Below are positions 16,434 through 33,256 of a DNA stretch of 64,000 bases, piece after piece. The DNA lies in the UHGV virus genome UHGV-1356548; one strand, written 5' to 3'. The stretch is from a virus. The translations under genes were made by a program, and so were the position numbers. The notes beneath the pieces were generated by a model that made no database searches, had not been told where the DNA came from, and worked only from the letters and a program-made list of their open reading frames with translations. The stretch's first letter is position 1. Every line of letters starts with the position of its first letter.

Positions 16434-17717
16434 TCATTCCAGAACCTCCCAAGTGTCTGGGTCAACATTTCGGACGCAGATACCGACAGGGAATTGGTAG
16501 TTGTTGTCTTCTGTCCTTGATTGATATTTGAAGGTGACAAACTTGCCGATCATTTCCTGCATCCTGTCATAGCTACGCTCCTCGTGCGTGCCTTTCATCT
16601 TCATTTTAACAATAACACCTTCCTTGTCAACACAGATAAGAACACCTTCATCATTCTTATCTTTCTCAACGTCAATAACTTTCACCTCTGCGTCGTTGAA
16701 CTTTTTCCATTTCAATGCTTCAGATGTTCGCTGACCGTACTCGTATTTACCGCAGAAATTACGCATGATAGTACCTTCATATCCTTCGGACATGAATATA
16801 CCAACAGATTCTTCGCAATGATCAACTGTGTACGCAAGCTCTGCGTCAACAACCTTGATATGGTCAAGCATCAGAGTGGTAACGGTATCCTCTGCATCCA
16901 TAAGATCCTTGCAGCGTCCAGACTCTGTTTCTGGATCCCACCACACCTTGTCGCTAGGAATATCAAAAATGTGATACTCCAGATCGTAGCTACAGTACCC
17001 ACCGTAACGCAAATCATCACGAACAGGCTCAACATCGACAGGAATATCTACCTTGTTGAAGTTTTTGTATGTTGATAAACCTGCCTTAATTGCTGCATGA
17101 CGGCGTTTTTTATCTGCCTCATAGTCTTTATCGATCTCGGCCTGAATCTCTTCCTGTGTGCGCCACCGTTTAGCAAGAGACACTATTTTCTGCAAAGGAA
17201 GACCATGAATGTATAGTTCCCCATCAAGTTGTTTAATCCCAGTGGTAGAATGGAAAGAACGAAGTTGCTCTAAAAGCTTTCCTTGAATAGGGTAGGACTT
17301 ATTACCACGGGAAATAAATTTAGGCTCACCATTTTGGAAAACAACAAGCAGACGAAGGCCATCTAACTTACGCAAGATCCAGCAAGGTAATTTAAGTGCC
17401 TTGCCACGCTTCAGGTAGTCATGCACCAGCATGGGTAAAAGATCAACACCCTGCTCGCAATCTTCCATGTTTTCAACATACCCCAGACGGACTTGTTTTT
17501 CCCACTTGCTGATAGCCTCAAGCTCGGCCTGTTGCTCAGCTGTAGTCTCGTTGGCACGACCTACGTTCTTAGGTGTGCATACCGTCTCTTTGTACTGCAG
17601 TTTACCATCAAGCTTGCCAAACTCTACGATAACCTTATCACCATCCGTGAATACTTTCCACTGTTGGTAGCTGCCATCTTTATTCAGTGCGTACAGTGTT
17701 GTTTTGATCTGATGCAT
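16434..17717 (-). CDS. ATP-dependent DNA ligase (intact copy)
   Basis: Motif I KLDGLR (KxDGxR), motif III LDGELYIHG, motif IV EGTIMR, motif V LKWKK; 427 aa. Its last 47 codons lie outside the duplicated unit. Confidence 0.7.
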   Translation of the reverse strand: MHQIKTTLYALNKDGSYQQWKVFTDGDKVIVEFGKLDGKLQYKETVCTPKNVGRANETTAEQQAELEAISKWEKQVRLGYVENMEDCEQGVDLLPMLVHDYLKRGKALKLPCWILRKLDGLRLLVVFQNGEPKFISRGNKSYPIQGKLLEQLRSFHSTTGIKQLDGELYIHGLPLQKIVSLAKRWRTQEEIQAEIDKDYEADKKRRHAAIKAGLSTYKNFNKVDIPVDVEPVRDDLRYGGYCSYDLEYHIFDIPSDKVWWDPETESGRCKDLMDAEDTVTTLMLDHIKVVDAELAYTVDHCEESVGIFMSEGYEGTIMRNFCGKYEYGQRTSEALKWKKFNDAEVKVIDVEKDKNDEGVLICVDKEGVIVKMKMKGTHEERSYDRMQEMIGKFVTFKYQSRTEDNNYQFPVGICVRNVDPDTWEVLE

Positions 17718-17986
17718 TACTCGGCCTCTTCCTTAAAAATTTTAAACATCTCTTCTTTACTCATTACCAACCAGTCTCCCATAAAGTCAACTAGCCAATC
17801 TCCCTGGTACAAGACAAGGTTACCAAAAGGCTCGACAAGCTCACACATGCGACGAAGATCTCTGGTCCGAACAGGTGACGATGTAAACACACCTGTATCA
17901 ATCCACCGTTGCAGATCAGATACTGATGAAGAGCTTCCGTCAAACTGATGTGCTTCTACAGGTTTAGCAAGATTAAATAACGGCAT
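17717..17986 (-). CDS. hypothetical protein
   Basis: 89-aa ORF; stop overlaps ligase start (TAATG). Confidence 0.3.
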   Translation of the reverse strand: MPLFNLAKPVEAHQFDGSSSSVSDLQRWIDTGVFTSSPVRTRDLRRMCELVEPFGNLVLYQGDWLVDFMGDWLVMSKEEMFKIFKEEAE

Positions 17987-18281
17987 TGCAGTCCTCCTTC
18001 TGTAGTAGGTCTTTTATAGGATAAACAAGTAAGTGTGGGTCGTAATAACGTATAGTCCTATTCTGCCACACTATGAACTTTATTACAACCAAATTTACAA
18101 TATCTTTATCACCATGTAGCCCAACACACACATTTGTCCATATTTTGTGGTTGAAGACCTTGCTATCGATGTAGATTTTAGTGTCAAACTTATCTTCCAT
18201 TCTACCAATAAGTTTGATCAGCTCCTTCATCTGGTCGCCAAACACAGCATCTTTTTCAAGATCTCTGGAATGCTTGTACAT
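17973..18281 (-). CDS. hypothetical protein
   Basis: 102-aa ORF. Confidence 0.3.
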   Translation of the reverse strand: MYKHSRDLEKDAVFGDQMKELIKLIGRMEDKFDTKIYIDSKVFNHKIWTNVCVGLHGDKDIVNLVVIKFIVWQNRTIRYYDPHLLVYPIKDLLQKEDCNAVI

Positions 18282-18310
18282 AACTGACTACCTCACTGCA
18301 TACTTTCCAT

Positions 18311-18336
18311 AATAAGTAAAGCCGGGTAATCCCGGC
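18311..18336 (-). terminator. rho-independent terminator (copy 1)
   Basis: Minus-strand GCCGGG-ATTA-CCCGGC hairpin followed by UUUACUUAUU, just 3' of the MazG-like gene stop. Confidence 0.5.
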
Positions 18337-18343
18337 TATGTTG

Positions 18344-19057
18344 TTAAATATACTCTGTTACATCCTTGAAGCTCGAAGGCTTCATAATCTTACCTTTACT
18401 GTCAAGGAATATAATAACTTTATTGCCGTTGTAGAACTCCTCTTTAGCAACGAAACCTTCGTAGCGACCACCAAAACGACGCTCAAGATCTTTAATCTCC
18501 AACTCGATGAGTTGTTCAGCAGGCATATCTGCACTGGCACCGTGTGAATGCCGTAGATGGTTGATCCGTGCAAACTTACTGTCATTAGATTTTAGAACCT
18601 TCCGCATCATCCCACACACATCCCCGCTAAGCTGGAACAGCAAAGCTGTTGATAACTCCGCTAGTCGGTAAGCTGACGCTCTTTGCTTGGATGTGTTTTT
18701 CGCAGCGATCAGTGTATCATAGAACTCACCGATCTTGAACTTAAGACCTCGCGGATTATCAAACAGGTTTGACCACTTTTCGTGGTTATCATTAACAAGA
18801 TAAGCTGCATAACTTGTGACAACGTGAAGATCGCAGGCCTCTTTTAGCAGGTGATCTCCACCATCACCTTTCTCCAGCTCTTCCAAAACCTCATTGAACT
18901 CTTCCTCAATGAAGCTAAGCTGTAATTCGAATGGTGTGTATGATTTTTTCACTTTAGCTGCCACACGGTTCCAGTTTTCCACCCAGTTGGCAGACCAAAG
19001 GTAGTTTTCAGGCTGGGACAGTTTTTCCAGGTTGTCGATCAGTTTAGTATTCAGCAT
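18344..19057 (-). CDS. MazG-like nucleotide pyrophosphohydrolase domain protein
   Basis: FIEEEFNEVLEELEKGDGGDHLLKEACDLHVV fits the EExxE...E...D acidic helix pattern of MazG/NTP-PPase family; C-terminal ~100 aa unassigned. Confidence 0.4.
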   Translation of the reverse strand: MLNTKLIDNLEKLSQPENYLWSANWVENWNRVAAKVKKSYTPFELQLSFIEEEFNEVLEELEKGDGGDHLLKEACDLHVVTSYAAYLVNDNHEKWSNLFDNPRGLKFKIGEFYDTLIAAKNTSKQRASAYRLAELSTALLFQLSGDVCGMMRKVLKSNDSKFARINHLRHSHGASADMPAEQLIELEIKDLERRFGGRYEGFVAKEEFYNGNKVIIFLDSKGKIMKPSSFKDVTEYI

Positions 19058-19070
19058 TAAAGGTCTCCTT

Positions 19071-19832
19071 TTAAAGTTCCATAAAGTTTTCTACAGTTTC
19101 AATAAATGCTTTATCAGAGAAAGCGTCAACAGCACCGTTAAACCATACAGGGATCCCGCGATCCTCATATTGATAAAGGTCGCTACGTGAAATGCCACTT
19201 CCATCTGCACTCTGCGAATCATACTTGTTTACAATCAGCAGTTTTGTGCCTTTACAAGTAGCAGGAAACAATTCCCAGTTAAAATTAATAACTGTGTTAG
19301 AACAACCTACCAGGATCACCATATCATTGCTTGTGAGAGATGTCAACAGGTCATACATGTCTGTATACTTAGGAGCAACCTCACCGAAGAACACTACATT
19401 GGGCTTAACCCAGGTATACTTGCCTGTATCTACCTCCGTGTATCCGATATTTTTAATTACATCATTACCTTCAGCATCTTCGTAGGTGATTTCAGGCAAA
19501 TACCCGTGGACATGTAAAATATCTTCATGTTTTACACCAGCACGCTCCAGCAAATCATCTACATTGGTAGTAAGGTTGATCACACGACCAGACCAGCGGG
19601 AATACCACTCAGCGATCCGAAGATGTGCAAGGTTAGGATCAACACTGCCCAGAGCTACACGACGTGCATTGTAAAAGTCATGCACCTTATAGTAGTTCTT
19701 GGCAAAGGTGTGGATGTTGCACACCTCATCGATGCTGAAATTCTCCCACATTGCAGTGCTACCAGATCGGAAAGTGGGAATACCAGATTCAGCGCTCAAA
19801 CCAGCACCGGAGATAATAATCAGTCGTCGCAT
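19071..19832 (-). CDS. Sir2-family (sirtuin-like) NAD-dependent protein, Zn-module absent
   Basis: GAGLSAESGIPTFR (sirtuin GAGxSxxSGIPxFR), DPNLAHL...TTNVDDLLERAG (PNxxH...TQNxDxLhxxAG), HVHG, KPNVVFFGE (RPxVVxFGE); no CxxC...CxxC zinc tetrad. Confidence 0.8.
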   Translation of the reverse strand: MRRLIIISGAGLSAESGIPTFRSGSTAMWENFSIDEVCNIHTFAKNYYKVHDFYNARRVALGSVDPNLAHLRIAEWYSRWSGRVINLTTNVDDLLERAGVKHEDILHVHGYLPEITYEDAEGNDVIKNIGYTEVDTGKYTWVKPNVVFFGEVAPKYTDMYDLLTSLTSNDMVILVGCSNTVINFNWELFPATCKGTKLLIVNKYDSQSADGSGISRSDLYQYEDRGIPVWFNGAVDAFSDKAFIETVENFMEL

Positions 19833-19840
19833 AAGTGTCC

Positions 19841-20191
19841 TCAGTAGATGTTTTGTTTAATCTCTATTCCAAACTTCTTGAATGAGTCAGCAGCAAGCAT
19901 AAATTTACGAGCTGCCGATGGATTAGAAGTATGCACGAAAATAATCACGTTGTCAATAAGTGGTGGCTTTCCGAATACAAGTTTCTCCTCTAGCGCAGAG
20001 AAGCAGTCGTACCCTTCAAGCACTTCACCTAGATCATTGTCAAAATGCCACTCAGAAACGCGCCTGTAGAGCTTTCTATTATCGTTAATAAAATCCATGA
20101 ACTCAGAAGAGTTCTTCAGCCAAAGAGCATCTTGGATTCCGTAATTTGACGGATCTCTCAAGTCATCTAGCCACACAATCAACTTCTTCAT
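19841..20191 (-). CDS. hypothetical protein
   Basis: Start set to ATG forming an ATGA overlap with the RNA ligase stop (MKKLIVWLDD...); 116 aa. Confidence 0.4.
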   Translation of the reverse strand: MKKLIVWLDDLRDPSNYGIQDALWLKNSSEFMDFINDNRKLYRRVSEWHFDNDLGEVLEGYDCFSALEEKLVFGKPPLIDNVIIFVHTSNPSAARKFMLAADSFKKFGIEIKQNIY

Positions 20192-21123
20192 TGCATATAG
20201 TCCTCGTTGTGAAAATAGCAATCAAGTATCTCACGGCGTTCCTGCTCCAGGAGGCAGTTCCACACATCTTCTGTGTAATTGCTACGAATGAAGTTTACCA
20301 TGCCATAAAACTCTTCGTCAATACGTTTAAAGATATCATCATCCCAAATCTTCCAAGCTTTACCCCTCATTACGGCCTTCCGTGCCAAATAGTATGGAGA
20401 CTTGATCTTCAGCTGCAGGTCATAAGGGTAGTAAGGCTTACGGATCATATACCCTTCGCCCCTTGTTTCTGCAGCTAATTCTTTTGCATAGCTGAACGGG
20501 ATTTCACGCACAGTGTGAGGACGTTTTGCACCAAGGTATTTGGCAATCCCATCTAAAGCTGCTTCTGGTAGCATTATTCCAGAATCATTATATCTGCAAC
20601 CTATCAAATATGCGCCATGGTCTTCTTGAACAATATGCGGATCTGAAGGGTGACAAATTTCAAACATGAATGTCATGTTTTCATTGCCCATAACCTTCTT
20701 GATAAGATCTAAATTACCACATTGCTCTTGGATGGTTTCCTTTGCAAGGTTACAATATGGAGAATCAAGAGACCCGGTTGTTGAGAACAATAGGTCACCT
20801 TTATGAGATGATACCACACCAAGGAATCCGTTCTTTTTCTCTACCGCAGTCACAAGCTTATTGTCAGGCAGGTTGGTGGAGTTTTCTCCCAAGTTAAACA
20901 CTTTTGTGAAGGGCCATGCCACAACATTTCCTTCATTACCTACAACAATGCCTCGGCACTCCAGTAAACGAGGGGACAAATGCCATAAATTGTTGTAAAA
21001 TACTTTTCTAGCATATTTATAGATCTTTAACCCGAGATCTGGGTAATACCTACTGGTTACAAGACCTTTGTCAACTAGGTCGTCTGCATTAAAATACTTC
21101 ATCATACGTTCCTCATTTGTCAT
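20188..21123 (-). CDS. RNA ligase-like nucleotidyltransferase
   Basis: Candidate motif I VEKKNGFLG (K-x-N-G), motif IV EGYMIRKPY, motif V LKIKSPYY; 311 aa; adjacent to kinase/phosphoesterase genes. Confidence 0.55.
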   Translation of the reverse strand: MTNEERMMKYFNADDLVDKGLVTSRYYPDLGLKIYKYARKVFYNNLWHLSPRLLECRGIVVGNEGNVVAWPFTKVFNLGENSTNLPDNKLVTAVEKKNGFLGVVSSHKGDLLFSTTGSLDSPYCNLAKETIQEQCGNLDLIKKVMGNENMTFMFEICHPSDPHIVQEDHGAYLIGCRYNDSGIMLPEAALDGIAKYLGAKRPHTVREIPFSYAKELAAETRGEGYMIRKPYYPYDLQLKIKSPYYLARKAVMRGKAWKIWDDDIFKRIDEEFYGMVNFIRSNYTEDVWNCLLEQERREILDCYFHNEDYMQ

Positions 21124-21166
21124 TTTGTCAGTCTATCCTGCCACACAAATAACCTAGTGTCAACAC

Positions 21167-21195
21167 TTGAAATTAACAAAACAGTCAGGTATACT
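21167..21195 (+). promoter_or_regulatory. sigma70-like promoter, duplicated copy at the duplication junction
   Basis: TTGAAA-N17-TATACT identical to the kinase promoter at 25828-25856; here it points into the antisense of the truncated ligase copy. Confidence 0.45.
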
Positions 21196-21235
21196 ACCGT
21201 TGAAATTAAAACGGAGGGTCACTATGTCTAAAATG

Positions 21236-22378
21236 CTATATATCGTGCGTGCCTTTCATCTTCATTTTAACAATAACACCTTCCTTGTCAACACAGATAA
21301 GAACACCTTCATCATTCTTATCTTTCTCAACGTCAATAACTTTCACCTCTGCGTCGTTGAACTTTTTCCATTTCAATGCTTCAGATGTTCGCTGACCGTA
21401 CTCGTATTTACCGCAGAAATTACGCATGATAGTACCTTCATATCCTTCGGACATGAATATACCAACAGATTCTTCGCAATGATCAACTGTGTACGCAAGC
21501 TCTGCGTCAACAACCTTGATATGGTCAAGCATCAGAGTGGTAACGGTATCCTCTGCATCCATAAGATCCTTGCAGCGTCCAGACTCTGTTTCTGGATCCC
21601 ACCACACCTTGTCGCTAGGAATATCAAAAATGTGATACTCCAGATCGTAGCTACAGTACCCACCGTAACGCAAATCATCACGAACAGGCTCAACATCGAC
21701 AGGAATATCTACCTTGTTGAAGTTTTTGTATGTTGATAAACCTGCCTTAATTGCTGCATGACGGCGTTTTTTATCTGCCTCATAGTCTTTATCGATCTCG
21801 GCCTGAATCTCTTCCTGTGTGCGCCACCGTTTAGCAAGAGACACTATTTTCTGCAAAGGAAGACCATGAATGTATAGTTCCCCATCAAGTTGTTTAATCC
21901 CAGTGGTAGAATGGAAAGAACGAAGTTGCTCTAAAAGCTTTCCTTGAATAGGGTAGGACTTATTACCACGGGAAATAAATTTAGGCTCACCATTTTGGAA
22001 AACAACAAGCAGACGAAGGCCATCTAACTTACGCAAGATCCAGCAAGGTAATTTAAGTGCCTTGCCACGCTTCAGGTAGTCATGCACCAGCATGGGTAAA
22101 AGATCAACACCCTGCTCGCAATCTTCCATGTTTTCAACATACCCCAGACGGACTTGTTTTTCCCACTTGCTGATAGCCTCAAGCTCGGCCTGTTGCTCAG
22201 CTGTAGTCTCGTTGGCACGACCTACGTTCTTAGGTGTGCATACCGTCTCTTTGTACTGCAGTTTACCATCAAGCTTGCCAAACTCTACGATAACCTTATC
22301 ACCATCCGTGAATACTTTCCACTGTTGGTAGCTGCCATCTTTATTCAGTGCGTACAGTGTTGTTTTGATCTGATGCAT
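21236..22378 (-). pseudogene. 3'-truncated duplicate of ATP-dependent DNA ligase
   Basis: Identical to residues 1-377 of the 16434-17717 product, then ends ...GTHDI* at the duplication junction, losing the last 47 residues. Confidence 0.6.
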
Positions 22379-22647
22379 TACTCGGCCTCTTCCTTAAAAA
22401 TTTTAAACATCTCTTCTTTACTCATTACCAACCAGTCTCCCATAAAGTCAACTAGCCAATCTCCCTGGTACAAGACAAGGTTACCAAAAGGCTCGACAAG
22501 CTCACACATGCGACGAAGATCTCTGGTCCGAACAGGTGACGATGTAAACACACCTGTATCAATCCACCGTTGCAGATCAGATACTGATGAAGAGCTTCCG
22601 TCAAACTGATGTGCTTCTACAGGTTTAGCAAGATTAAATAACGGCAT
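22378..22647 (-). CDS. hypothetical protein (duplicate of 17717-17986)
   Basis: Identical translation to copy 1. Confidence 0.3.
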   Translation of the reverse strand: MPLFNLAKPVEAHQFDGSSSSVSDLQRWIDTGVFTSSPVRTRDLRRMCELVEPFGNLVLYQGDWLVDFMGDWLVMSKEEMFKIFKEEAE

Positions 22648-22942
22648 TGCAGTCCTCCTTCTGTAGTAGGTCTTTTATAGGATAAACAAGTAAGTGTGGG
22701 TCGTAATAACGTATAGTCCTATTCTGCCACACTATGAACTTTATTACAACCAAATTTACAATATCTTTATCACCATGTAGCCCAACACACACATTTGTCC
22801 ATATTTTGTGGTTGAAGACCTTGCTATCGATGTAGATTTTAGTGTCAAACTTATCTTCCATTCTACCAATAAGTTTGATCAGCTCCTTCATCTGGTCGCC
22901 AAACACAGCATCTTTTTCAAGATCTCTGGAATGCTTGTACAT
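22634..22942 (-). CDS. hypothetical protein (duplicate of 17973-18281)
   Basis: Identical translation to copy 1. Confidence 0.3.
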   Translation of the reverse strand: MYKHSRDLEKDAVFGDQMKELIKLIGRMEDKFDTKIYIDSKVFNHKIWTNVCVGLHGDKDIVNLVVIKFIVWQNRTIRYYDPHLLVYPIKDLLQKEDCNAVI

Positions 22943-22971
22943 AACTGACTACCTCACTGCATACTTTCCAT

Positions 22972-22997
22972 AATAAGTAAAGCCGGGTAATCCCGGC
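22972..22997 (-). terminator. rho-independent terminator (copy 2)
   Basis: Duplicate of the 18311-18336 hairpin. Confidence 0.5.
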
Positions 22998-23004
22998 TAT
23001 GTTG

Positions 23005-23718
23005 TTAAATATACTCTGTTACATCCTTGAAGCTCGAAGGCTTCATAATCTTACCTTTACTGTCAAGGAATATAATAACTTTATTGCCGTTGTAGAACTC
23101 CTCTTTAGCAACGAAACCTTCGTAGCGACCACCAAAACGACGCTCAAGATCTTTAATCTCCAACTCGATGAGTTGTTCAGCAGGCATATCTGCACTGGCA
23201 CCGTGTGAATGCCGTAGATGGTTGATCCGTGCAAACTTACTGTCATTAGATTTTAGAACCTTCCGCATCATCCCACACACATCCCCGCTAAGCTGGAACA
23301 GCAAAGCTGTTGATAACTCCGCTAGTCGGTAAGCTGACGCTCTTTGCTTGGATGTGTTTTTCGCAGCGATCAGTGTATCATAGAACTCACCGATCTTGAA
23401 CTTAAGACCTCGCGGATTATCAAACAGGTTTGACCACTTTTCGTGGTTATCATTAACAAGATAAGCTGCATAACTTGTGACAACGTGAAGATCGCAGGCC
23501 TCTTTTAGCAGGTGATCTCCACCATCACCTTTCTCCAGCTCTTCCAAAACCTCATTGAACTCTTCCTCAATGAAGCTAAGCTGTAATTCGAATGGTGTGT
23601 ATGATTTTTTCACTTTAGCTGCCACACGGTTCCAGTTTTCCACCCAGTTGGCAGACCAAAGGTAGTTTTCAGGCTGGGACAGTTTTTCCAGGTTGTCGAT
23701 CAGTTTAGTATTCAGCAT
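23005..23718 (-). CDS. MazG-like domain protein (duplicate)
   Basis: Identical translation to 18344-19057. Confidence 0.4.
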   Translation of the reverse strand: MLNTKLIDNLEKLSQPENYLWSANWVENWNRVAAKVKKSYTPFELQLSFIEEEFNEVLEELEKGDGGDHLLKEACDLHVVTSYAAYLVNDNHEKWSNLFDNPRGLKFKIGEFYDTLIAAKNTSKQRASAYRLAELSTALLFQLSGDVCGMMRKVLKSNDSKFARINHLRHSHGASADMPAEQLIELEIKDLERRFGGRYEGFVAKEEFYNGNKVIIFLDSKGKIMKPSSFKDVTEYI

Positions 23719-23731
23719 TAAAGGTCTCCTT

Positions 23732-24493
23732 TTAAAGTTCCATAAAGTTTTCTACAGTTTCAATAAATGCTTTATCAGAGAAAGCGTCAACAGCACCGTT
23801 AAACCATACAGGGATCCCGCGATCCTCATATTGATAAAGGTCGCTACGTGAAATGCCACTTCCATCTGCACTCTGCGAATCATACTTGTTTACAATCAGC
23901 AGTTTTGTGCCTTTACAAGTAGCAGGAAACAATTCCCAGTTAAAATTAATAACTGTGTTAGAACAACCTACCAGGATCACCATATCATTGCTTGTGAGAG
24001 ATGTCAACAGGTCATACATGTCTGTATACTTAGGAGCAACCTCACCGAAGAACACTACATTGGGCTTAACCCAGGTATACTTGCCTGTATCTACCTCCGT
24101 GTATCCGATATTTTTAATTACATCATTACCTTCAGCATCTTCGTAGGTGATTTCAGGCAAATACCCGTGGACATGTAAAATATCTTCATGTTTTACACCA
24201 GCACGCTCCAGCAAATCATCTACATTGGTAGTAAGGTTGATCACACGACCAGACCAGCGGGAATACCACTCAGCGATCCGAAGATGTGCAAGGTTAGGAT
24301 CAACACTGCCCAGAGCTACACGACGTGCATTGTAAAAGTCATGCACCTTATAGTAGTTCTTGGCAAAGGTGTGGATGTTGCACACCTCATCGATGCTGAA
24401 ATTCTCCCACATTGCAGTGCTACCAGATCGGAAAGTGGGAATACCAGATTCAGCGCTCAAACCAGCACCGGAGATAATAATCAGTCGTCGCAT
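23732..24493 (-). CDS. Sir2-family protein (duplicate)
   Basis: Identical translation to 19071-19832. Confidence 0.8.
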   Translation of the reverse strand: MRRLIIISGAGLSAESGIPTFRSGSTAMWENFSIDEVCNIHTFAKNYYKVHDFYNARRVALGSVDPNLAHLRIAEWYSRWSGRVINLTTNVDDLLERAGVKHEDILHVHGYLPEITYEDAEGNDVIKNIGYTEVDTGKYTWVKPNVVFFGEVAPKYTDMYDLLTSLTSNDMVILVGCSNTVINFNWELFPATCKGTKLLIVNKYDSQSADGSGISRSDLYQYEDRGIPVWFNGAVDAFSDKAFIETVENFMEL

Positions 24494-24501
24494 AAGTGTC
24501 C

Positions 24502-24852
24502 TCAGTAGATGTTTTGTTTAATCTCTATTCCAAACTTCTTGAATGAGTCAGCAGCAAGCATAAATTTACGAGCTGCCGATGGATTAGAAGTATGCACGAA
24601 AATAATCACGTTGTCAATAAGTGGTGGCTTTCCGAATACAAGTTTCTCCTCTAGCGCAGAGAAGCAGTCGTACCCTTCAAGCACTTCACCTAGATCATTG
24701 TCAAAATGCCACTCAGAAACGCGCCTGTAGAGCTTTCTATTATCGTTAATAAAATCCATGAACTCAGAAGAGTTCTTCAGCCAAAGAGCATCTTGGATTC
24801 CGTAATTTGACGGATCTCTCAAGTCATCTAGCCACACAATCAACTTCTTCAT
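24502..24852 (-). CDS. hypothetical protein (duplicate of 19841-20191)
   Basis: Identical translation to copy 1. Confidence 0.4.
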   Translation of the reverse strand: MKKLIVWLDDLRDPSNYGIQDALWLKNSSEFMDFINDNRKLYRRVSEWHFDNDLGEVLEGYDCFSALEEKLVFGKPPLIDNVIIFVHTSNPSAARKFMLAADSFKKFGIEIKQNIY

Positions 24853-25784
24853 TGCATATAGTCCTCGTTGTGAAAATAGCAATCAAGTATCTCACGGCGT
24901 TCCTGCTCCAGGAGGCAGTTCCACACATCTTCTGTGTAATTGCTACGAATGAAGTTTACCATGCCATAAAACTCTTCGTCAATACGTTTAAAGATATCAT
25001 CATCCCAAATCTTCCAAGCTTTACCCCTCATTACGGCCTTCCGTGCCAAATAGTATGGAGACTTGATCTTCAGCTGCAGGTCATAAGGGTAGTAAGGCTT
25101 ACGGATCATATACCCTTCGCCCCTTGTTTCTGCAGCTAATTCTTTTGCATAGCTGAACGGGATTTCACGCACAGTGTGAGGACGTTTTGCACCAAGGTAT
25201 TTGGCAATCCCATCTAAAGCTGCTTCTGGTAGCATTATTCCAGAATCATTATATCTGCAACCTATCAAATATGCGCCATGGTCTTCTTGAACAATATGCG
25301 GATCTGAAGGGTGACAAATTTCAAACATGAATGTCATGTTTTCATTGCCCATAACCTTCTTGATAAGATCTAAATTACCACATTGCTCTTGGATGGTTTC
25401 CTTTGCAAGGTTACAATATGGAGAATCAAGAGACCCGGTTGTTGAGAACAATAGGTCACCTTTATGAGATGATACCACACCAAGGAATCCGTTCTTTTTC
25501 TCTACCGCAGTCACAAGCTTATTGTCAGGCAGGTTGGTGGAGTTTTCTCCCAAGTTAAACACTTTTGTGAAGGGCCATGCCACAACATTTCCTTCATTAC
25601 CTACAACAATGCCTCGGCACTCCAGTAAACGAGGGGACAAATGCCATAAATTGTTGTAAAATACTTTTCTAGCATATTTATAGATCTTTAACCCGAGATC
25701 TGGGTAATACCTACTGGTTACAAGACCTTTGTCAACTAGGTCGTCTGCATTAAAATACTTCATCATACGTTCCTCATTTGTCAT
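24849..25784 (-). CDS. RNA ligase-like nucleotidyltransferase (duplicate)
   Basis: Identical translation to 20188-21123. Confidence 0.55.
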   Translation of the reverse strand: MTNEERMMKYFNADDLVDKGLVTSRYYPDLGLKIYKYARKVFYNNLWHLSPRLLECRGIVVGNEGNVVAWPFTKVFNLGENSTNLPDNKLVTAVEKKNGFLGVVSSHKGDLLFSTTGSLDSPYCNLAKETIQEQCGNLDLIKKVMGNENMTFMFEICHPSDPHIVQEDHGAYLIGCRYNDSGIMLPEAALDGIAKYLGAKRPHTVREIPFSYAKELAAETRGEGYMIRKPYYPYDLQLKIKSPYYLARKAVMRGKAWKIWDDDIFKRIDEEFYGMVNFIRSNYTEDVWNCLLEQERREILDCYFHNEDYMQ

Positions 25785-25827
25785 TTTGTCAGTCTATCCT
25801 GCCACACAAATAACCTAGTGTCAACAC

Positions 25828-25856
25828 TTGAAATTAACAAAACAGTCAGGTATACT
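25828..25856 (+). promoter_or_regulatory. sigma70-like promoter of kinase/phosphoesterase operon
   Basis: TTGAAA (25828-25833), 17-bp spacer, TATACT (25851-25856); GGAGGG RBS precedes ATG 25885; direct repeat TTGAAATTAA occurs twice in this region. Confidence 0.5.
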
Positions 25857-25884
25857 ACCGTTGAAATTAAAACGGAGGGTCACT

Positions 25885-26295
25885 ATGTCTAAAATGCTAT
25901 ATATCGTGCGTGGTCTACCAGGGTCTGGCAAATCAACACTGGCAAATGCGCTATCTTTAGAGGGTCTGTATCCACATTTTGAGAACGACATGTTCTGGTA
26001 TGACGATGACGGCAATTACAACTGGGATGCAAGTAAAGTAACACTCGCAGCAAAATGGTGCAAAGATAACGTAGAAGATATGATGCGTATGGGATACGAC
26101 CGTATCGTGGTAAGTAATACGTTTACAAAAGAAAAACATGTGCAGGAATATGTTGACATGGCAATCAGTCATGGGTATAGTTATACCGTGATCGTGGTTG
26201 AAAACCGCCACGGTAATAAAAGCATTCATGATGTTCCAGACAAGGTTGTGGATCGTATGGAACGCCAGCTTAAAAACTGCATTAAACTTAAATGA
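25885..26295 (+). CDS. P-loop polynucleotide 5'-kinase-like protein
   Basis: Walker A RGLPGSGKST at residues 9-18 and overall resemblance to the kinase domain of T4 Pnk; start moved to ATG 25885 (the ORF-track TTG start at 25828 lies in the promoter). Confidence 0.55.
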   Translation: MSKMLYIVRGLPGSGKSTLANALSLEGLYPHFENDMFWYDDDGNYNWDASKVTLAAKWCKDNVEDMMRMGYDRIVVSNTFTKEKHVQEYVDMAISHGYSYTVIVVENRHGNKSIHDVPDKVVDRMERQLKNCIKLK

Positions 26296-26302
26296 GGAAT
26301 GT

Positions 26303-26857
26303 ATGAAATACTTTGTAACAAGCGACACACACTTTCTCCACCAGCGGGTCATGGAGTTTGATTCATGTCAAAAACACAGATCTCAGTATGATCACAATCT
26401 TGACAGTATGAATGCGGGAATCATCGCCAAGTGGAACTCTGTTGTGTCACCTGCAGACACTGTGTTCCACTTGGGAGATATTGCGTGCACTAATGATAAG
26501 AATATCAACAACTTACTTCCAGATATTCTAAATATGTTGAACGGACATATTATTCTTGTTCGTGGCAACCATGACACAAGGACGACTGTCAGAATTATGA
26601 AAGAGTTCGGTCATGAGGTTGTAGATTATTACGAGCTTCGCCACAACAAGAATTTGATCTGTATGAGCCATTACCAGTTTGCAAAGTGGAACAGAAAGCC
26701 TCACGGATCAGTCCAACTGTTCGGTCATGCTCACGGAACCACACAACAGTTGTTTGGCAGGCAGCTTGATGTCGGTTGGGATGTGTGGGGGAGACTCTTA
26801 CCATTAGAAGAGGCATACCGTATTGCAATGAGTTTTGATATTGACAGCAGGGAGTAA
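26303..26857 (+). CDS. calcineurin-like metallophosphoesterase
   Basis: Motifs VTSDTHF (DxH), GDIA (GD), GNHD, GHAH in canonical order; start at ATG 26303 (MKYFVTSDTHF). Confidence 0.7.
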   Translation: MKYFVTSDTHFLHQRVMEFDSCQKHRSQYDHNLDSMNAGIIAKWNSVVSPADTVFHLGDIACTNDKNINNLLPDILNMLNGHIILVRGNHDTRTTVRIMKEFGHEVVDYYELRHNKNLICMSHYQFAKWNRKPHGSVQLFGHAHGTTQQLFGRQLDVGWDVWGRLLPLEEAYRIAMSFDIDSRE

Positions 26858-26870: not shown

Positions 26871-26904
26871 AAAGAAAATTGCCACACAAGGAGAATCAGG
26901 AGAT

Positions 26905-27255
26905 ATGAAAGATGGGGATAAGCTGCTATATCTTAAAGTCCCCCTTGAAATACTATCTATGTCAAAAGTTTTGAATGACACAACTGGGGAGGTTGTTGTT
27001 CTTGACTTGTATGACAAGATCGTATACTGCTACCTGCACAACTGGTATAAGCTTGGAGGAAATTCACGCTTCACACCAAGCACAAGGAAAATTGCAGCAG
27101 ATGTTGGGATAAAGAAAACAAAAGCAGCAGCGTGCGTTAAAACTTTAGAATGTGCAGGAGTGGTTGAAACATCCACACAAGGGAGAGGTAAAAGATGCAC
27201 ATTTTCCAAAGTTTTGCCACCAGAAGAAGTTATTCGGATGTCAACAACTGGTTAG
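26905..27255 (+). CDS. small putative DNA-binding protein (possible winged-helix)
   Basis: 116-aa ORF with AGGAGA RBS; segment PSTRKIAADVGIKKTKAAACVKTLECAGVVE resembles an HTH/winged-helix recognition region; sits directly upstream of the iteron array. Confidence 0.3.
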   Translation: MKDGDKLLYLKVPLEILSMSKVLNDTTGEVVVLDLYDKIVYCYLHNWYKLGGNSRFTPSTRKIAADVGIKKTKAAACVKTLECAGVVETSTQGRGKRCTFSKVLPPEEVIRMSTTG

Positions 27256-27329
27256 ACCAGTAAAAACTTAAATATCTGTACTATAAGGATTCGTATGTTT
27301 TATGTTCGCCATGGAACGGATACTATTAA

Positions 27330-27412
27330 CTGTCCGTGATACGGACACTACTGTCCGTCACGCGGACACATCTGCCCGTAATACGGACACTAGCTGTCCG
27401 TGATACGGACAC
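27330..27412. repeat. iteron array: four 19-bp dyad-symmetric repeats
   Basis: CTGTCCGTGATACGGACAC (27330), CTGTCCGTCACGCGGACAC (27351), CTGCCCGTAATACGGACAC (27372), CTGTCCGTGATACGGACAC (27394); spacing 21/21/22 bp; each has inverted half-sites GTCCG...CGGAC; a degenerate half-site ACGGATAC sits at about 27316. Confidence 0.85.
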
Positions 27413-27916
27413 ATAAAGAATATAACTAAAATAACTAAATAATAAAAAAATAAAAGATCTAGTACTTATGGTACTAAGTACATATACTTAACTTATGTAG
27501 AATATACTAGATCCTAAGTACCATGTTTTAAATTTATTACTTACTATGGGCAGTGTCGGCCCTTCATTGGCACTCGCCTACGAGGGGCGAGATGCCGGGC
27601 CTCTTTGGTGCACACAATAACAGAAGTTCATACATACAGGTCTGTTAACATGTGTGGGAGCGAAGCGATAGCGCAGGCCAAAGGCCGAGCACTGATGTGG
27701 ACCACCGACGAAAGCTTGCCAGCGCCGTAAGGAGTCGGTTGAGAGTCTCCCGCGCGAGCTTGGATGAAGTTTATGTGTGGAAACTGACAAGAAGGCCCCT
27801 AAATCGCTCCACAGCTATATAAACTATACCAGGTAATGCAATCGCACCAGTTTGATAGAAAAGCTCGTTACAAAGCGATACAGTTAGTTTTTCTATAACT
27901 TGAAGAGGAGGCAGCT

Positions 27917-28495
27917 ATGGGTTCACGCAAAGATGACCGTGAAAAGATTGCAAAACGTTATCAGAATGAAGAACAGATGGAGAAAACTTTCAAGTGGAAG
28001 CCCGGTTTCCAGCGTAATCATTCTAACGCTCGTGATCGTAAGCATCCGGATAAGTGGCTAACACCGCCAAATGATGGCATGCAGGTTGGGGATGAGAAGG
28101 AGATGTCGCCTGGAAAAGATGGCAACTACATTCGCACTAAGGACGCTGGTCCAAAGGATGACAGCTATCTTGTAGATAAGGTTCTTGATGGTATCAATGT
28201 AGATGTTGACACTGCACGAAACCTTTTTCTTGGGTGGTATCGCACAGGTTTTTTCGACATCAAGGCTATTCGTCGTGTTTGTGATATTAAAAAGTCTGCA
28301 TATGATGACGACTCGTTACATCGCACCCTGAGACAATATTCAGAAAGATATGGTCATCCGGTTATCACTCTTGACGATGTTAACGAAGTGATGTATCATG
28401 CAGAGGTTGTTGCAGGAAGATTTGGTGATGCATATCTTGATATCCTTTCTGCAAAGGATGAGGTAATGTTAAATAAGATTTACTATGAACGCTGA
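27917..28495 (+). CDS. hypothetical protein
   Basis: 192-aa ORF with GAGGAGG RBS. Confidence 0.4.
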   Translation: MGSRKDDREKIAKRYQNEEQMEKTFKWKPGFQRNHSNARDRKHPDKWLTPPNDGMQVGDEKEMSPGKDGNYIRTKDAGPKDDSYLVDKVLDGINVDVDTARNLFLGWYRTGFFDIKAIRRVCDIKKSAYDDDSLHRTLRQYSERYGHPVITLDDVNEVMYHAEVVAGRFGDAYLDILSAKDEVMLNKIYYER

Positions 28496-29792: not shown

Positions 29793-29867
29793 GCCCTGTT
29801 AGCTTAGTGGATAAAGCAGCGGCCTTCTAAGCCGTTGACACTGGTTCGAGTCCAGTACGGGGTGCCA
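29793..29867 (+). tRNA. tRNA-Arg (anticodon UCU)
   Basis: Cloverleaf by hand: acceptor GCCCTGT/ACGGGGT, D-arm GCTT...AAGC, anticodon loop CTTCTAA, T-loop TTCGAGT, encoded CCA. Confidence 0.75.
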
Positions 29868-29871
29868 AATT

Positions 29872-29958
29872 GGGGAGTTATCCCGTAGGGGTAGCGGTGT
29901 AGACTGTAAATCTATTGTCATTGCGACTCGGGTGGTTCGACTCCACCACTCCCCACCA
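29872..29958 (+). tRNA. tRNA-Tyr (anticodon GUA), class II
   Basis: Acceptor GGGGAGT/ACTCCCC, anticodon loop CTGTAAA, long variable arm resembling E. coli tRNA-Tyr, T-loop TTCGACT, encoded CCA. Confidence 0.8.
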
Positions 29959-30072
29959 AATTTATAGTTTTAAATGCATAAATCATACAGATAATGGCAT
30001 TGATATTTATCGTCGTTTATACTAGTCACTAACTGCTCGAAAATCAGTGTCATTATCAGTATTGTTTATAAA

Positions 30073-30163
30073 TGAGGGTAGGGAGCAATGGTGCTCAAGC
30101 GGTCTTGAAAACCGTCCCGTTGAGGATGACTTGATGATGGTTCGATTCCATTACCCTCAGCCA
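30073..30163 (+). tRNA. tRNA-Ser (anticodon UGA), class II
   Basis: Acceptor TGAGGGT/ACCCTCA, anticodon arm GCGGT-CTTGAAA-ACCGT, long variable arm, T-loop TTCGATT, encoded CCA; 5' boundary +/-1 nt. Confidence 0.7.
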
Positions 30164-30260
30164 TATTGTTGACCTTGTAATTAAGCGAAAGCCGGAAGCA
30201 GAACCGGATTATCAAATGTTACAGTCGTCATCGCCGACTAGCAACATGGTCAACATACTG

Positions 30261-30359
30261 AGCTAGGTAAGCCCTTTGGCAAGGGCGAGGATTTTTAATC
30301 CTGAAAATAGACGAGGTAGTCGTTGAATACATAGGTGGTTCGATTCCATCACCTAGCAC
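30261..30359 (+). tRNA. atypical tRNA-like gene, Lys-type anticodon loop (UUU), oversized variable region
   Basis: Perfect 7-bp acceptor GCTAGGT/ACCTAGC, D-arm GCCC-TTTGGCAA-GGGC, anticodon arm AGGA-TTTTTAA-TCCT, T-arm GGTGG-TTCGATT-CCATC, but 32 nt (with its own GACGA-GGTAG-TCGTT hairpin) between anticodon and T arms; 3' end is CCT not CCA. Confidence 0.4.
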
Positions 30360-30364
30360 CTTTT

Positions 30365-30440
30365 TGCTGATGTAGCACAATTGGTAGTGCAATTGATTTG
30401 TAATCAATAGGTTGCAGGTTCAAGTCCTGCCATCAGCACC
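30365..30440 (+). tRNA. tRNA-Thr (anticodon UGU)
   Basis: Acceptor GCTGATG/CATCAGC, anticodon arm ATTGA-TTTGTAA-TCAAT, T-loop TTCAAGT, encoded CCA. Confidence 0.85.
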
Positions 30441-30441
30441 A

Positions 30442-30516
30442 TGGCCCTGTAGCTGGAAGGTTCAAGCAAGCGACTCATAATCGCCAGACGGTGGTTCAAT
30501 TCCACCCAGGGCCACC
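30442..30516 (+). tRNA. tRNA-Met (anticodon CAU; elongator or Ile-lysidine type)
   Basis: Acceptor GGCCCTG/CAGGGCC with G1-C72 pair, anticodon arm GCGA-CTCATAA-TCGC, T-loop TTCAATT, encoded CCA. Confidence 0.8.
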
Positions 30517-30527
30517 AAATAATAAAT

Positions 30528-30604
30528 ACTCCGCGTAGCTCAGCTTGGTAGAGCGCCTGATTTGGGATCAGGAGGTCGAGTGTTCGAATCACTCCGTGGA
30601 GACC
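30528..30604 (+). tRNA. tRNA-Pro (anticodon UGG)
   Basis: Acceptor CTCCGCG/CGTGGAG with the C1-G72 pair typical of bacterial tRNA-Pro, D-arm GCTC...GAGC, anticodon arm CCTGA-TTTGGGA-TCAGG, T-loop TTCGAAT, encoded CCA. Confidence 0.85.
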
Positions 30605-30650
30605 ACTTTCAGTTATACTTTAAACATATACAAACAAAAGGAACCTTTAA

Positions 30651-31425: not shown

Positions 31426-31709
31426 GAGTTGCTACACTGTTTATTGTGTGCTTGTTATTATGTGGGTGTGCAACCAGCGTTGAGAGAGAATACAAGATTG
31501 ACCCTCCGGATGTAGGAAGGTTGATTGTTAAACCCCCGGAAGGTGCCATGAAACCACCTGCTAAAGCTATGCCTTTGAAGAAAGGTGCGCCAGATGCAGT
31601 GAATTCTGGCATTATGAGGGATAATAATCTGTCTTGTAGCAATGATAGAGCTAAATTGATCATTTTGCAAGACTATATTAGAACACTGTTTCCAAAGGAG
31701 AGAGGTTAA
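31422..31709 (+). CDS. o-spanin (Rz1-like outer-membrane lipoprotein)
   Basis: Signal peptide with lipobox-like LLLCGCA, proline-rich mature region (PPDVG...KPPEGAMKPPAKAMP). Confidence 0.6.
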   Translation: MRVATLFIVCLLLCGCATSVEREYKIDPPDVGRLIVKPPEGAMKPPAKAMPLKKGAPDAVNSGIMRDNNLSCSNDRAKLIILQDYIRTLFPKERG

Positions 31710-33256
31710 TGTCTAAGATTTACGGACCGTGTTCTGAAAAGCAGAAGATGATCCTAGAAAACGATGCAGATATTTTGGTAATCGGCGGTGCCGCAGGGTC
31801 TGGCAAGTCGTTCCTCTTGCAGTTGATGCCACTTAAAATTATTGATGACCCCCACAGCTCTGTGGTTATGTTCCGAAGAACAACCCCACAGTTGGAAGGT
31901 GAGGGTGGACTATGGCCTAAAGCAGTAGCTATTTACAGTGATCTGCCTGAAAACATTAAGCCAAAGTTCAGAGAGAAGGATCATAAGTTCATTTTTCCAC
32001 GGTTTGATCCGAACACTGGTAAGTGGGATAGAAGCAAAAAGGGAGCTGTTGTAAAATACTGCCATATGGAGTATGTACAAGATAAGCTTAACCATCAGGG
32101 GCTTGAGTACACCATGGTTTGCTTCGATGAGGGCACGCAGTTCGAATGGGAGCAGATAGACTATCTGATGTCTCGTCTGCGATCTCAGTCAAAGTATCCA
32201 TCAAGAATGGTTATCAGCTGTAACCCCGATTCAGAACACATGCTTGCCAAACTGGTTAGATGGTGGTTGGACGATGAAGGGTATCCAGATCCGGAGAAAT
32301 GCGGTAAGAAAAGATATTTTATCCGACGCGACGGTGAATTTATCTGGGGAGACTCTAAAGAAGAGTTGATAGAGAAATACACCACGGTTAACGGACTTGG
32401 CGTAGAGATCAAGCCAAGACCGTTGTCATTCTCGTTCATAGGCGCAACAATATTCGATAATCCTGTCTGTTTGAGAGACAACCCAGAATACCTTGCTTTC
32501 CTCGAAGGTCTACCAGAGCTGGAAAAAGCTCAGCTTCTCCATGGTAACTGGTTTGCAAAGCCTGAGGGTGCAAACTATTTTCAAAGATCTTTCCTTCGTG
32601 ATGCCGATAGAGTACCTCTTGGGTCAGTATCTTGCAGGGCATGGGATAAGGCAGGAACCGAGAGAACTTCCGGTAATAAATTTCCTGACTTTACTGCCAG
32701 TATTAAGGTAAGTAAAGATAGCGACGGCTTTTATTACCTGTCCGGTGATTATTGTCCTGAGAACGTGGATGACGGGAGGTATTCCACAGGTCTGGAAGGC
32801 AAGTTCTGTAAAAAGGCTGGTGAACGAGATGTGATCATCAGGAAACAGGCGCAGTTCGATGGTGATGATTGCATAATCGTCTTCTCTGTGGACCCAGGGC
32901 AGGCAGGTAAGAGTGAGTTCTTAACCTCCTCCAGATCCTTGCTTGCCGAAGGGTTCAGGGTTGAAGAAGACCCAATGCCTTCCAACAAGTCTAAACTGAC
33001 AAGGTTCTCACCTTTTGCCAATCTTGCCCAACAAGGAATGGTGAGGATTGTAAAATCCAGTTTCCATCCTGATACTCTGGAAGCATTTCTGACTGAACTT
33101 GAAAAATTCAACGGGGAAAGATCAACATTTAACAGAAAAGACGACTGGGCCGACTGTGTAGCTTCTGCGATTAATTTCCTAGAGAAAGAGGAGGTAGCAC
33201 TTCCTTGTGTGATTCCATCAATCTCATCACCTTCTATGTTCAAGCGTTTTATCTAA
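31709..33256 (+). CDS. terminase large subunit
   Basis: 515 aa; Walker A ADILVIGGAAGSGKSFLL near N-terminus; acidic nuclease-type C-terminal half; precedes portal-sized ORF. Confidence 0.8.
   Translation: MSKIYGPCSEKQKMILENDADILVIGGAAGSGKSFLLQLMPLKIIDDPHSSVVMFRRTTPQLEGEGGLWPKAVAIYSDLPENIKPKFREKDHKFIFPRFDPNTGKWDRSKKGAVVKYCHMEYVQDKLNHQGLEYTMVCFDEGTQFEWEQIDYLMSRLRSQSKYPSRMVISCNPDSEHMLAKLVRWWLDDEGYPDPEKCGKKRYFIRRDGEFIWGDSKEELIEKYTTVNGLGVEIKPRPLSFSFIGATIFDNPVCLRDNPEYLAFLEGLPELEKAQLLHGNWFAKPEGANYFQRSFLRDADRVPLGSVSCRAWDKAGTERTSGNKFPDFTASIKVSKDSDGFYYLSGDYCPENVDDGRYSTGLEGKFCKKAGERDVIIRKQAQFDGDDCIIVFSVDPGQAGKSEFLTSSRSLLAEGFRVEEDPMPSNKSKLTRFSPFANLAQQGMVRIVKSSFHPDTLEAFLTELEKFNGERSTFNRKDDWADCVASAINFLEKEEVALPCVIPSISSPSMFKRFI

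Follow-up and report, generated by a model that had tools for sequence, protein, structure and literature searches.

A conserved GC-rich array of hairpins beside a probable iteron-type origin in rV5-like phages, shared with 13-kb Escherichia coli plasmids

The rV5-like phages (Vequintavirus) are widely used as candidates for therapy and biocontrol. To our knowledge, no replication origin or cis-acting element has so far been defined in them. The 64,000-nt stretch analysed here, virus genome UHGV-1356548 (hereafter the window), is by its sequence the genome of such an Escherichia coli phage. It contains a GC-rich island at 27541-27800 which, judged from the way it varies among its relatives, is a conserved non-coding nucleic acid with stems under selection. 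The island lies beside a group of iterons that probably forms a replication origin, and its modules recur next to the iterons of small E. coli plasmids. As to function, we tentatively favour a strand-specific, origin-associated signal that acts when single-stranded, for priming or helicase entry, in the manner of the single-strand initiation (ssi) signals of plasmids. The locus provides a concrete candidate origin or cis element for rV5-like phages. It would be unusual among origin-associated structured cis elements, in that its cassette-like hairpins are headed by the boxC of ribosomal RNA operons (rrn) and are shared with a probable satellite.

The first-pass annotation of the window had singled out about 260 bp of GC-rich sequence, and this was borne out. 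The GC content is 55.4% at 27541-27800 against a mean of 43.6% (sd 3.2%) for 260-bp windows across the 64 kb, which makes the island the richest stretch of its length (99.97th percentile for GC). It is directly adjoined by the AT-rich stretch 27415-27540, with 19.8% GC. The 660-bp gap holding the island is flanked by genes for a 116-aa 'putative transcriptional regulator' (26905-27255) and a 192-aa hypothetical protein (27917-28495). Over 27200-27950, Escherichia phage I29 shows no difference (100% identity), and 119 records match at 88-100% identity, every one of them belonging to Vequintavirus. The island is kept in 119/119 of these records and is fixed across the genus, with one copy per phage genome and no paralogues there. 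Among 13 phage sequences, the near-invariant parts of the gap are the iterons, the AT-rich stretch and the three modules H1, C' and E; the variable parts are 27535-27552, 27604-27650 and everything past 27759. Across the 119 genomes, the three modules are also better conserved than their flanks. The island is built as follows.

27553-27603, plus strand: module H1, an interrupted hairpin (27558-27601; stems GGCCC/GGGCC, GGCA/TGCC and CTCGCC/GGCGAG) preceded by GTGTC.
27604-27650, plus strand: variable spacer ('module 2'), the most variable part of the island.
27651-27693, plus strand: module C', consisting of TGTGTGGG, a GCGAAGC mini-hairpin (27660-27666) and GGCC-AAA-GGCC (27676-27686); near-invariant in phages.
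27695-27756, plus strand: module E, consisting of ATGTGGACC, helix P2, the 24-nt loop GAAAGCTTGCCAGCGCCGnAAGGA and the tail GAGAGTCTCCCGCGCG.

The nested complementarity reported earlier for this region was likewise real. The hairpin sequence cited for it, GGCCCTTCATTGGCACTCGCCTACGAGGGGCGAGATGCCGGGCC (27558-27601), folds into the interrupted hairpin of H1, with 15 bp, an RNA dG of -28 kcal/mol and a z of about -3 against shuffled sequences on either strand. All three H1 sites that vary among phages sit in loops. From the phage to plasmid NZ_CP020521, H1 has undergone two G-C to T-A double changes as well as changes in the loops, and not one pair is broken. In module E, helix P2 (27704-27709 / 27734-27739) closes the invariant 24-nt loop and is followed by the tail at 27741-27756. 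E is common to seven plasmid or metagenome copies, and P2 passes from ACCGAC/GTCGGT in the phage to GCTGCC/GGCAGC in the plasmids by three double changes. Two phages carry A27704G, which gives a G.T at the first P2 pair where the opposite strand would have an A.C mismatch. Additionally, a GUAA/GGAA (GNRA) variation is found within E. Across 21 base pairs, phage and plasmid copies thus differ by five double compensatory substitutions and by no disruptive one. When an equal number of substitutions was placed at random in a simulation, with the helices defined on these same sequences, all pairs were kept with p=0.0016 for H1 and p=5e-6 for P2.

By itself, E is not unusually stable compared with its shuffles, and for the entire 296 nt of the island the gain in stability over shuffled sequences is slight (z -1.7 on the plus strand and -1.4 on the minus strand). 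Therefore, the case for structure rests on compensatory substitutions and not on folding energy. Nearly all hairpins of phage and plasmids have 3-nt loops closed by C-G, GCGAAGC among them. The proteins flanking the island are restricted to the genus, and a deep covariation analysis is therefore impossible. Three further pairings were dropped: a hairpin in module 2, which shows no covariation and is partly lost in rV5 (18 bp of 27604-27650 are deleted in rV5 and Murica); a helix GGAC/GUCU around 27701/27746, for which two of five combinations are mismatched; and a helix CUUGC/GUAAG within the E loop, which the T27728G variant breaks. Of the structured RNA suggested at first, the structured and non-coding character stands; the folded strand may be RNA or single-stranded DNA.

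A small protein-coding gene is extremely improbable here, whether the antisense 70-aa open reading frame (ORF), rV5 'ORF78' (27652-27822) or the ORFs of 27-40 aa annotated in some records. Apart from these annotations, such a gene could appeal to open frames in all six phases, to the two deletions seen (18 bp and 3 bp), which are both divisible by three, and to an AAGGAG upstream of the TTG at 27739. The short antisense ORF described in the first pass does exist (27578-27790, 70 aa, TTG start), but all six reading frames are open across the island because the DNA is GC-rich. The 67 variable columns split 27:20:20 over the three phases, without codon periodicity or an excess of third-position substitutions, and substitutions in stems come paired rather than synonymous. 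Moreover, no ORF is conserved, since each candidate is truncated, split or without a start in some homologue. In L006, the most distant phage, the candidate ORF stops after 11 codons, and the plasmid copies are without a start.

It is also highly improbable that the island is inert foreign or host-derived DNA without a function. A captured host fragment had been proposed, and a GC content far over the genome mean would suit such an origin. However, the comparison with host genomes by BLASTN gave no chromosomal homologue among 5,426 E. coli genomes, and the island is genus-wide and single-copy. The superior conservation of H1, C' and E, the compensatory evolution in their stems and the retention of H1 and E in plasmids further speak against inert DNA. 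Taken jointly, the coding and inert readings are still very improbable. By sequence, the host likeness of the island is limited to an 8-10 nt rrn boxC motif.

Known RNA classes did not account for the island either. The Rfam scan proposed in the first pass was negative, as no Rfam 15 family matches 27541-27800 at the gathering threshold or at E<=10, and five plasmid loci gave no match at E<=0.1. ARAGORN and RF00005 found no tRNA or tmRNA in the island, the tRNAs of the window being confined to 29793-30605. Searches of 185,579 genomes for wider homologues of an 18-mer core returned chance matches only, and IMG/VR contributed one real further phage, L006. In metagenomes, three phages and two plasmid-like contigs carry matching sequence. 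Several resemblances were set aside as short or not conserved: domain IV of signal recognition particle RNA (CCGGAAGGAGGCAGC), the I-F repeat stem, Chi, N15-type tel sites, T7-type primase pentamers (GTGTC/GGGTC before H1) and Xer core-like sequences 3' of E in the plasmids. Between 27743-27771 and the type I-E CRISPR repeat of E. coli, 20/29 positions agree; this resemblance was set aside as well, since the hairpin is missing and the 3' half differs among phages.

Outside phages, the island is matched solely by small circular E. coli 'plasmids' of 13.2-13.9 kb and by the two metagenome contigs. The plasmid family comprises L102 (NZ_CP020521.1), L103, L110-L113, L117, L195 and L200-L202. All are typed as non-mobilizable, and one record of 39.6 kb is an exact tandem trimer. 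By annotation they encode major capsid, tape measure, baseplate and helix-turn-helix (HTH) proteins, and neither a terminase nor a portal. The capsid proteins of plasmids and phage share one PHROG, and the plasmid baseplate and neighbouring proteins have 48-54% aa identity with window proteins (tblastx). At the nucleotide level, H1 and E rank among the few matches between phage and plasmids. The plasmids have unrelated iterons of their own, of at least three kinds, together with their own initiator-like HTH protein (phrog_428/391). The order is the same as in the phage, namely iterons, an AT-rich stretch and GC-rich hairpin cassettes ending in E. The GC-rich region of the plasmids is a mosaic of cassettes A, B, C, D, F and H1, whose number and order vary, and E is always last.

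Module E exists in a second type in four of these plasmids (L195 2390-2470, minus strand; L200-L202). Here GTCCGGAT-N18-ATCCGGAC replaces P2 and the 24-nt loop, so that a different 8-bp hairpin occupies the same place, and ATGTGGA and a pyrimidine-CGCGCG tail are kept. The tails of this type differ (GGAGTCTCCCGCGCG, GGTTTCTCGCGCGCG, GGGATTCCGCGCGCG). A pseudoknot is possible in two of the plasmids, where the hairpin loop GAGACUUC complements the tail GGAGUCUC. From their gene content and shared sequence, the 13-kb plasmids look like episomal satellites of rV5-like phages, so far undescribed; a literature search found no paper describing them. The H1 and E modules common to both points to a shared cis-acting signal, as far as function may be read from such sharing. 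The presence of these modules in plasmids encoding rV5-like capsid, tape measure and baseplate proteins suggests an undescribed helper-satellite pair, and if this is true, the shared sequence would be the likeliest point of molecular hijacking.

The association of the island with iterons, which the first-pass annotation had pointed out, proved to be the most informative clue. Upstream of the island, the locus contains the following features.

26905-27255, plus strand: the 116-aa winged-HTH protein annotated 'putative transcriptional regulator', by its profile matches a probable origin-binding initiator.
27327-27412, no strand assigned: four iterons, each with the palindrome TGTCCGTnnnnCGGACA, at spacings of 21, 21 and 22 bp.
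27415-27540, no strand assigned: the AT-rich stretch, conserved, with an inverted repeat (27468-27478 / 27514-27524); a candidate unwinding element.

The order is therefore an initiator-like gene, four iterons, a 20%-GC stretch and then H1, C' and E on the plus strand. The iterons are direct repeats in helical phase and are near-invariant in nine aligned phage sequences. The 116-aa protein, which is confined to Vequintavirus, matches phrog_12838 'replication initiation protein' with E=5e-80 and, more weakly, phrog_8102 and phrog_428. In Pfam, HTH_36 and DUF6945 are slightly under the cut-off. A weak RepA_N-like match (E 0.8) was also seen. Furthermore, genes for nucleotide metabolism and replication lie on one side of the locus, and the tRNA cluster, TerL (31709-33253) and the portal and capsid genes on the other; a DnaB-family primase/helicase is encoded by the phage. 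On these sequence features, the iteron region and the AT-rich stretch probably constitute an iteron-type replication origin.

A second pattern concerns the heptamer TGTGTGG, copies of which are placed on both sides of the iterons.

26733-26739, 26876-26882 and 27167-27173, minus strand: three TGTGTGG, antisense to genes and pointing away from the iterons, at most 600 bp to their left.
27774-27780, plus strand: an extra TGTGTGG 3' of E, not kept in L006.

The plus-strand copies of the phage lie in the island, and the motif thus points outward on both sides of the iterons. Two of the three minus-strand copies are kept at homologous positions in L006. In the plasmids, where TGTGTGG is the most over-represented 7-mer (6-7.5 fold, both strands), it likewise points outward around their own iterons. 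Because of this outward polarity, with three copies antisense to genes, a replication signal fits better than one in a transcript. Over its whole genome I29 contains the heptamer 52 times, and a gene-poor region well beyond the window has a second cluster. In that region, the I29 record (L199 4451-4528, at about 104.4-104.6 kb) contains a perfect, spacer-less palindrome whose length is 76 bp or more (about 100 bp as judged by eye). The gene-poor region measures 3.5 kb, and eight TGTGTGG are clustered there. On either side of the palindrome stand 594-bp direct repeats, each with one UCUGUGUGGG. Beside the palindrome is GGTGCGCATAATGGGTATTATGTTAAAT, which agrees with the E. coli dif site at 26/28 positions.

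Such ssi signals are known beside plasmid oriVs, where RSF1010 ssiA/ssiB and the G4-type G-site work by hairpin priming. According to the mechanism that we tentatively favour for the island, the initiator would bind the iterons and the AT-rich stretch would open. The plus strand of the island would then turn single-stranded and fold into compact hairpins, many with 3-nt loops including GCGAAGC. These hairpins would resist coating by single-strand-binding protein and mark the entry of the phage DnaB-type primase/helicase or of the host primosome, and the first primer would be laid. Plasmids with H1 and E beside their own iterons and initiator could in this way be served by the same replisome. 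That the folded strand is DNA, and that it has a priming or loading role, are both inferred. In favour are the position beside iterons in two settings whose iterons are unrelated, the mini-hairpins with 3-nt loops and the gene-antisense motif copies. As would be expected of an ssi, the hairpins are kept by selection, with compensatory changes in H1 and P2, beside iterons in phage and plasmids alike. Mini-hairpins of the GCGAAGC type have been reported at the priming sites G4 oric and RSF1010 ssiA (PMC13037366).

Several observations weigh against an ssi-like signal. The island has no sequence similarity to any ssi of the G4, phiX or RSF1010 type, and beyond the 13-kb plasmids and a single phage record, blastn against 72,556 plasmids matched nothing. 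No consensus DnaA box (TTWTNCACA) occurs at 14.3-33.4 kb, which leaves none within 6 kb of the locus. The cumulative GC-skew minimum of the complete I29 genome, at 72 kb, is 1.3 kb from the iterons at 73.3 kb and speaks for an origin here, but GC skew also tracks gene orientation, so that it is confounded and its support weak. The iterons have GC-rich hairpins on a single side. Finally, the G.T pair of P2 and the wobble-dependent complementarity between tail and boxC suit RNA over DNA, and the identity with boxC, an RNA element, is left unexplained.

In the way it works, the island comes closest to the flank of an iteron oriV that carries ssi signals, its priming activity being putative. RSF1010 oriV with ssiA/ssiB, G4 oric and the G-sites of R1/R100 resemble it in having iterons and AT- and GC-rich segments followed by strand-specific hairpins, which in those origins serve as single-strand priming signals. 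GNA-type mini-hairpins are shared too, with CCGAAGG in RSF1010 ssiA and GCGAAAGC in G4 (PMC13037366), compared with GCGAAGC in the island. In contrast to RSF1010, whose hairpins are paired on opposite strands and show no sequence similarity to the island, those described here are one-sided; a recurring motif of 8-10 nt heads the modules, which the plasmids carry shuffled as cassettes. RK2 oriV has a GC-rich block of about 70 bp immediately past its AT-rich unwinding element, for which covarying hairpins are not described. The block is placed alike, whereas the island comprises 210 bp of modular hairpins.

The boxC likeness leads to a different explanation. In the rrn leaders of Enterobacteriaceae, boxC (UCUGUGUGGG) is nearly invariant and its role has been called 'unclear' (PMC10250234); the identity of UCUGUGUGGG with boxC was also confirmed in rrnH. 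Every plasmid cassette opens with (U)CUGUGUGGG, an exact boxC. The match extends to 10/10 positions in the plasmid cassettes and to 8/10 at 27651-27658 in the phage, where TGTGTGGG equals boxC positions 3-10, and weaker boxC-like copies occur in the phage at 27695 and 27774. Across the window, the 8-mer TGTGTGGG is 4-fold over-represented (7 observed against 2.25 expected; 0/100 shuffles), with copies at 18611, 23272, 26782, 27651, 45406, 47211 and 61762, each in the sense orientation relative to the genes around it.

It is accordingly possible, though rather doubtful, that the island acts as a structured cis-acting RNA in the plus-strand transcript and mimics an rrn leader. Together with the CGCGCG tail, its boxC motifs and hairpins would make helices of the leader-trailer kind, which would be processed by RNase III and/or recruit the Nus/S4 antitermination-chaperone machinery. 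A transcript continuing into the untranslated tRNA cluster and on to the genes for terminase, portal and capsid would thereby be protected or processed. Neither a sigma-70-like promoter nor an intrinsic terminator is found in 27200-27950; with nothing of the kind interrupting the intergenic region, the island should be co-transcribed. Besides the boxC identity (10/10 in plasmids, 8/8 for the shorter phage motif), this RNA is favoured by the P2 G.U pair, which is permitted on the plus strand only, by the GNRA variation in E, by the sense orientation of 7/7 TGTGTGGG copies and by the downstream position of the tRNA cluster and TerL.

Possible boxA sequences give mixed testimony. The canonical boxA, (U/C)GCUCUU(U)A in RNA, is absent as GCTCTTTA from 27200-27950, and the boxA-like sequences nearest to boxC are imperfect or variable, such as the variable GGTCTGTTAACA at 27639-27650. 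Plasmid arrays open with ACUCUUUAGGCAAUCUGUGUGGG and cassette F closes with CGCUCUUUGUGUGGG, both being boxA-like and then boxC, in support of an rrn-like arrangement. However, wherever a boxA-like sequence exists its spacing to boxC is 0-7 nt, compared with 18-19 nt in rrn. In the phage, further boxA-like sequence and a conserved block follow the island.

27792-27846, plus strand: downstream block AAGGCCCCTAAATCGC ... ATGCAATCGCA, syntenic with AAGCCCCCTAAATGGC ... GTGCAATTGCA in every plasmid.
27863-27873, plus strand: weak boxA-like GCTCGTTACAA, conserved, about 45 nt 5' of the next gene, with one mismatch and one deletion relative to GCTCTTTAACAA.

The rrn boxA reference used here is GCTCTTTAACAA (PMC2724277), and the likeness of GCTCGTTACAA to it is a resemblance only. 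The motif of the downstream block is single-copy in the window and is therefore not a general promoter; as general promoter motifs, CCCTAAAT and GAGTCTCCC were rejected because each is single-copy in the relevant context.

The evidence on pairing between tail and boxC is divided as well. Through G.U pairs, boxC-like sequences are open to pairing with the E tail GAGAGUCUCCCGCGCG, whose best complement in the window belongs to the following feature.

26782-26799, plus strand: TGTGTGGGGGAGACTCTT, within a phosphoesterase gene; a tentative partner of the E tail.

Within this boxC-like sequence, the RNA duplex of the tail with 26785-26799 reaches -27.5 kcal/mol, the next independent site being at -20.8. 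In L006, synonymous changes at 26785-26799 are matched by a change in the tail, from G-C to A-U, as expected if the two pair. Against this, the pair with 26794 is broken and uncompensated in many phages (C or A at 27746), and plasmid tail-boxC duplexes are at best equal to those of shuffled tails. The alignment of the island to the rrn leader does not exceed shuffled controls. The RNA reading is further weakened by promoter-like TTGACA...TATAA(G/A) sequences seen by eye downstream of the plasmid cassettes, by the gene-antisense motif copies flanking the iterons, and by the report that boxC is unnecessary for antitermination (PMC2724277).

Compared directly, the island and the rrn leader, with its boxA-boxC and its 16S leader-trailer helix (rrnTAC / RNase III), have the UCUGUGUGGG identity in common. 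In rrn, boxC is invariant and its partner varies by Watson-Crick and wobble exchange (PMC10250234); in the island, a pyrimidine/CG-rich tail could pair with the motif only via G.U, and an untranslated tRNA cluster lies downstream. The two differ in that the island has no canonical boxA at 18-19 nt, carries multiple boxC copies, has no significant wider similarity and, in the plasmids, has a tail-boxC pairing that is statistically unsupported. The lambda nut and HK022 put RNAs, which act in cis on RNA polymerase, are similar in combining short conserved linear boxes and hairpins in a leader. They differ from the island in that it has no N-type boxB, no match to a curated family and no promoter identified directly upstream. 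A GU-rich boxC is carried by lambda nut as well (PMC2724277).

The ssi-like and RNA readings are not exclusive, as an origin-acting transcript or R-loop would satisfy both. A more specific proposal, which we consider unlikely, is that arrays of rrn boxC mimics, each joined to a small hairpin and ending in the wobble-pairing CGCGCG tail, as RNA or within an origin R-loop, capture the Nus/S4 complex and RNase III. If true, such arrays would couple transcription through the origin to the start of replication or to expression of the tRNA/packaging operon, and would represent an undescribed, modular and shufflable class of cis-RNA common to a lytic helper and its satellite. The reuse of rrn boxC may also offer a natural route to learning what reads the motif.

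Quite unlikely, in our estimation, is an array of duplex DNA sites (TGTGTGG / ATGTGGA and flanks) for a DNA-binding protein of phage or plasmid, serving as a headful pac site for the small terminase of the helper or as a partition or regulatory site, which the satellite would copy in order to be packaged or controlled by its helper. Satellites typically share cis sites of their helpers, and the rank of H1 and E among the few phage-plasmid nucleotide matches would agree with this, as would the abundance of TGTGTGG on both strands of the plasmids. TerL, which shares the orientation of the island, is 4 kb downstream of it, and rV5-like phages have been reported as headful/pac packagers (PMC13211470). 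However, covarying stems with conserved loops would be unexpected in duplex sites, the E hairpin is replaceable, and the adjacency to unrelated iterons in both settings is left unexplained. The ORFs immediately upstream of TerL are annotated as spanins, so that a link to terS is not evident. In addition, an alternative pac candidate exists in the shared 35-bp non-genic segment at 38588-38622. P4/P2 cos and the cos-type phage-inducible chromosomal islands are comparable in having a non-coding site whose nucleotide sequence is conserved between a lytic, helper-like phage and a small element bearing some structural genes like those of the helper. While cos and pac are duplex protein sites, the island has stem covariation and sits at a putative origin, and its helper-satellite relation is inferred.

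The 35-bp stretch just mentioned (AATCAAGATCTTCTCnCAnTGATATTGAnGCCATA) is 91% identical between 38588-38622 and L102 2594-2628, and is a second candidate for a shared cis-site, e.g. pac or a late promoter. In the phage it lies within a gene downstream of the capsid gene, and in the plasmids in non-annotated DNA upstream of the capsid gene.

Some minor observations concern the records and the remainder of the window. The annotation 'anti-termination protein' in I29 was discarded, as Pfam support is absent. Among the records near-identical to rV5-like phage genomes are 18 labelled 'Campylobacter phage' and CP057073.1, a 137.6-kb E. coli 'plasmid', all of which are probably mislabelled or represent contaminating phage. 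The window contains an exact tandem duplication (approximately 16582-21242 and 21243-25903, spacing 4661 bp) that covers the RNA ligase and Sir2-like genes, their neighbours and their promoter. The 4661-bp segment is single-copy in the otherwise identical I29 record, and may be a true duplication or an assembly artefact. Lastly, a 99-nt tRNA-like gene at 30262-30360 is given a four-base anticodon by ARAGORN and has a low Rfam score (35.5 bits); it is annotated as tRNA-Lys in other records and may contain an intron or be aberrant.

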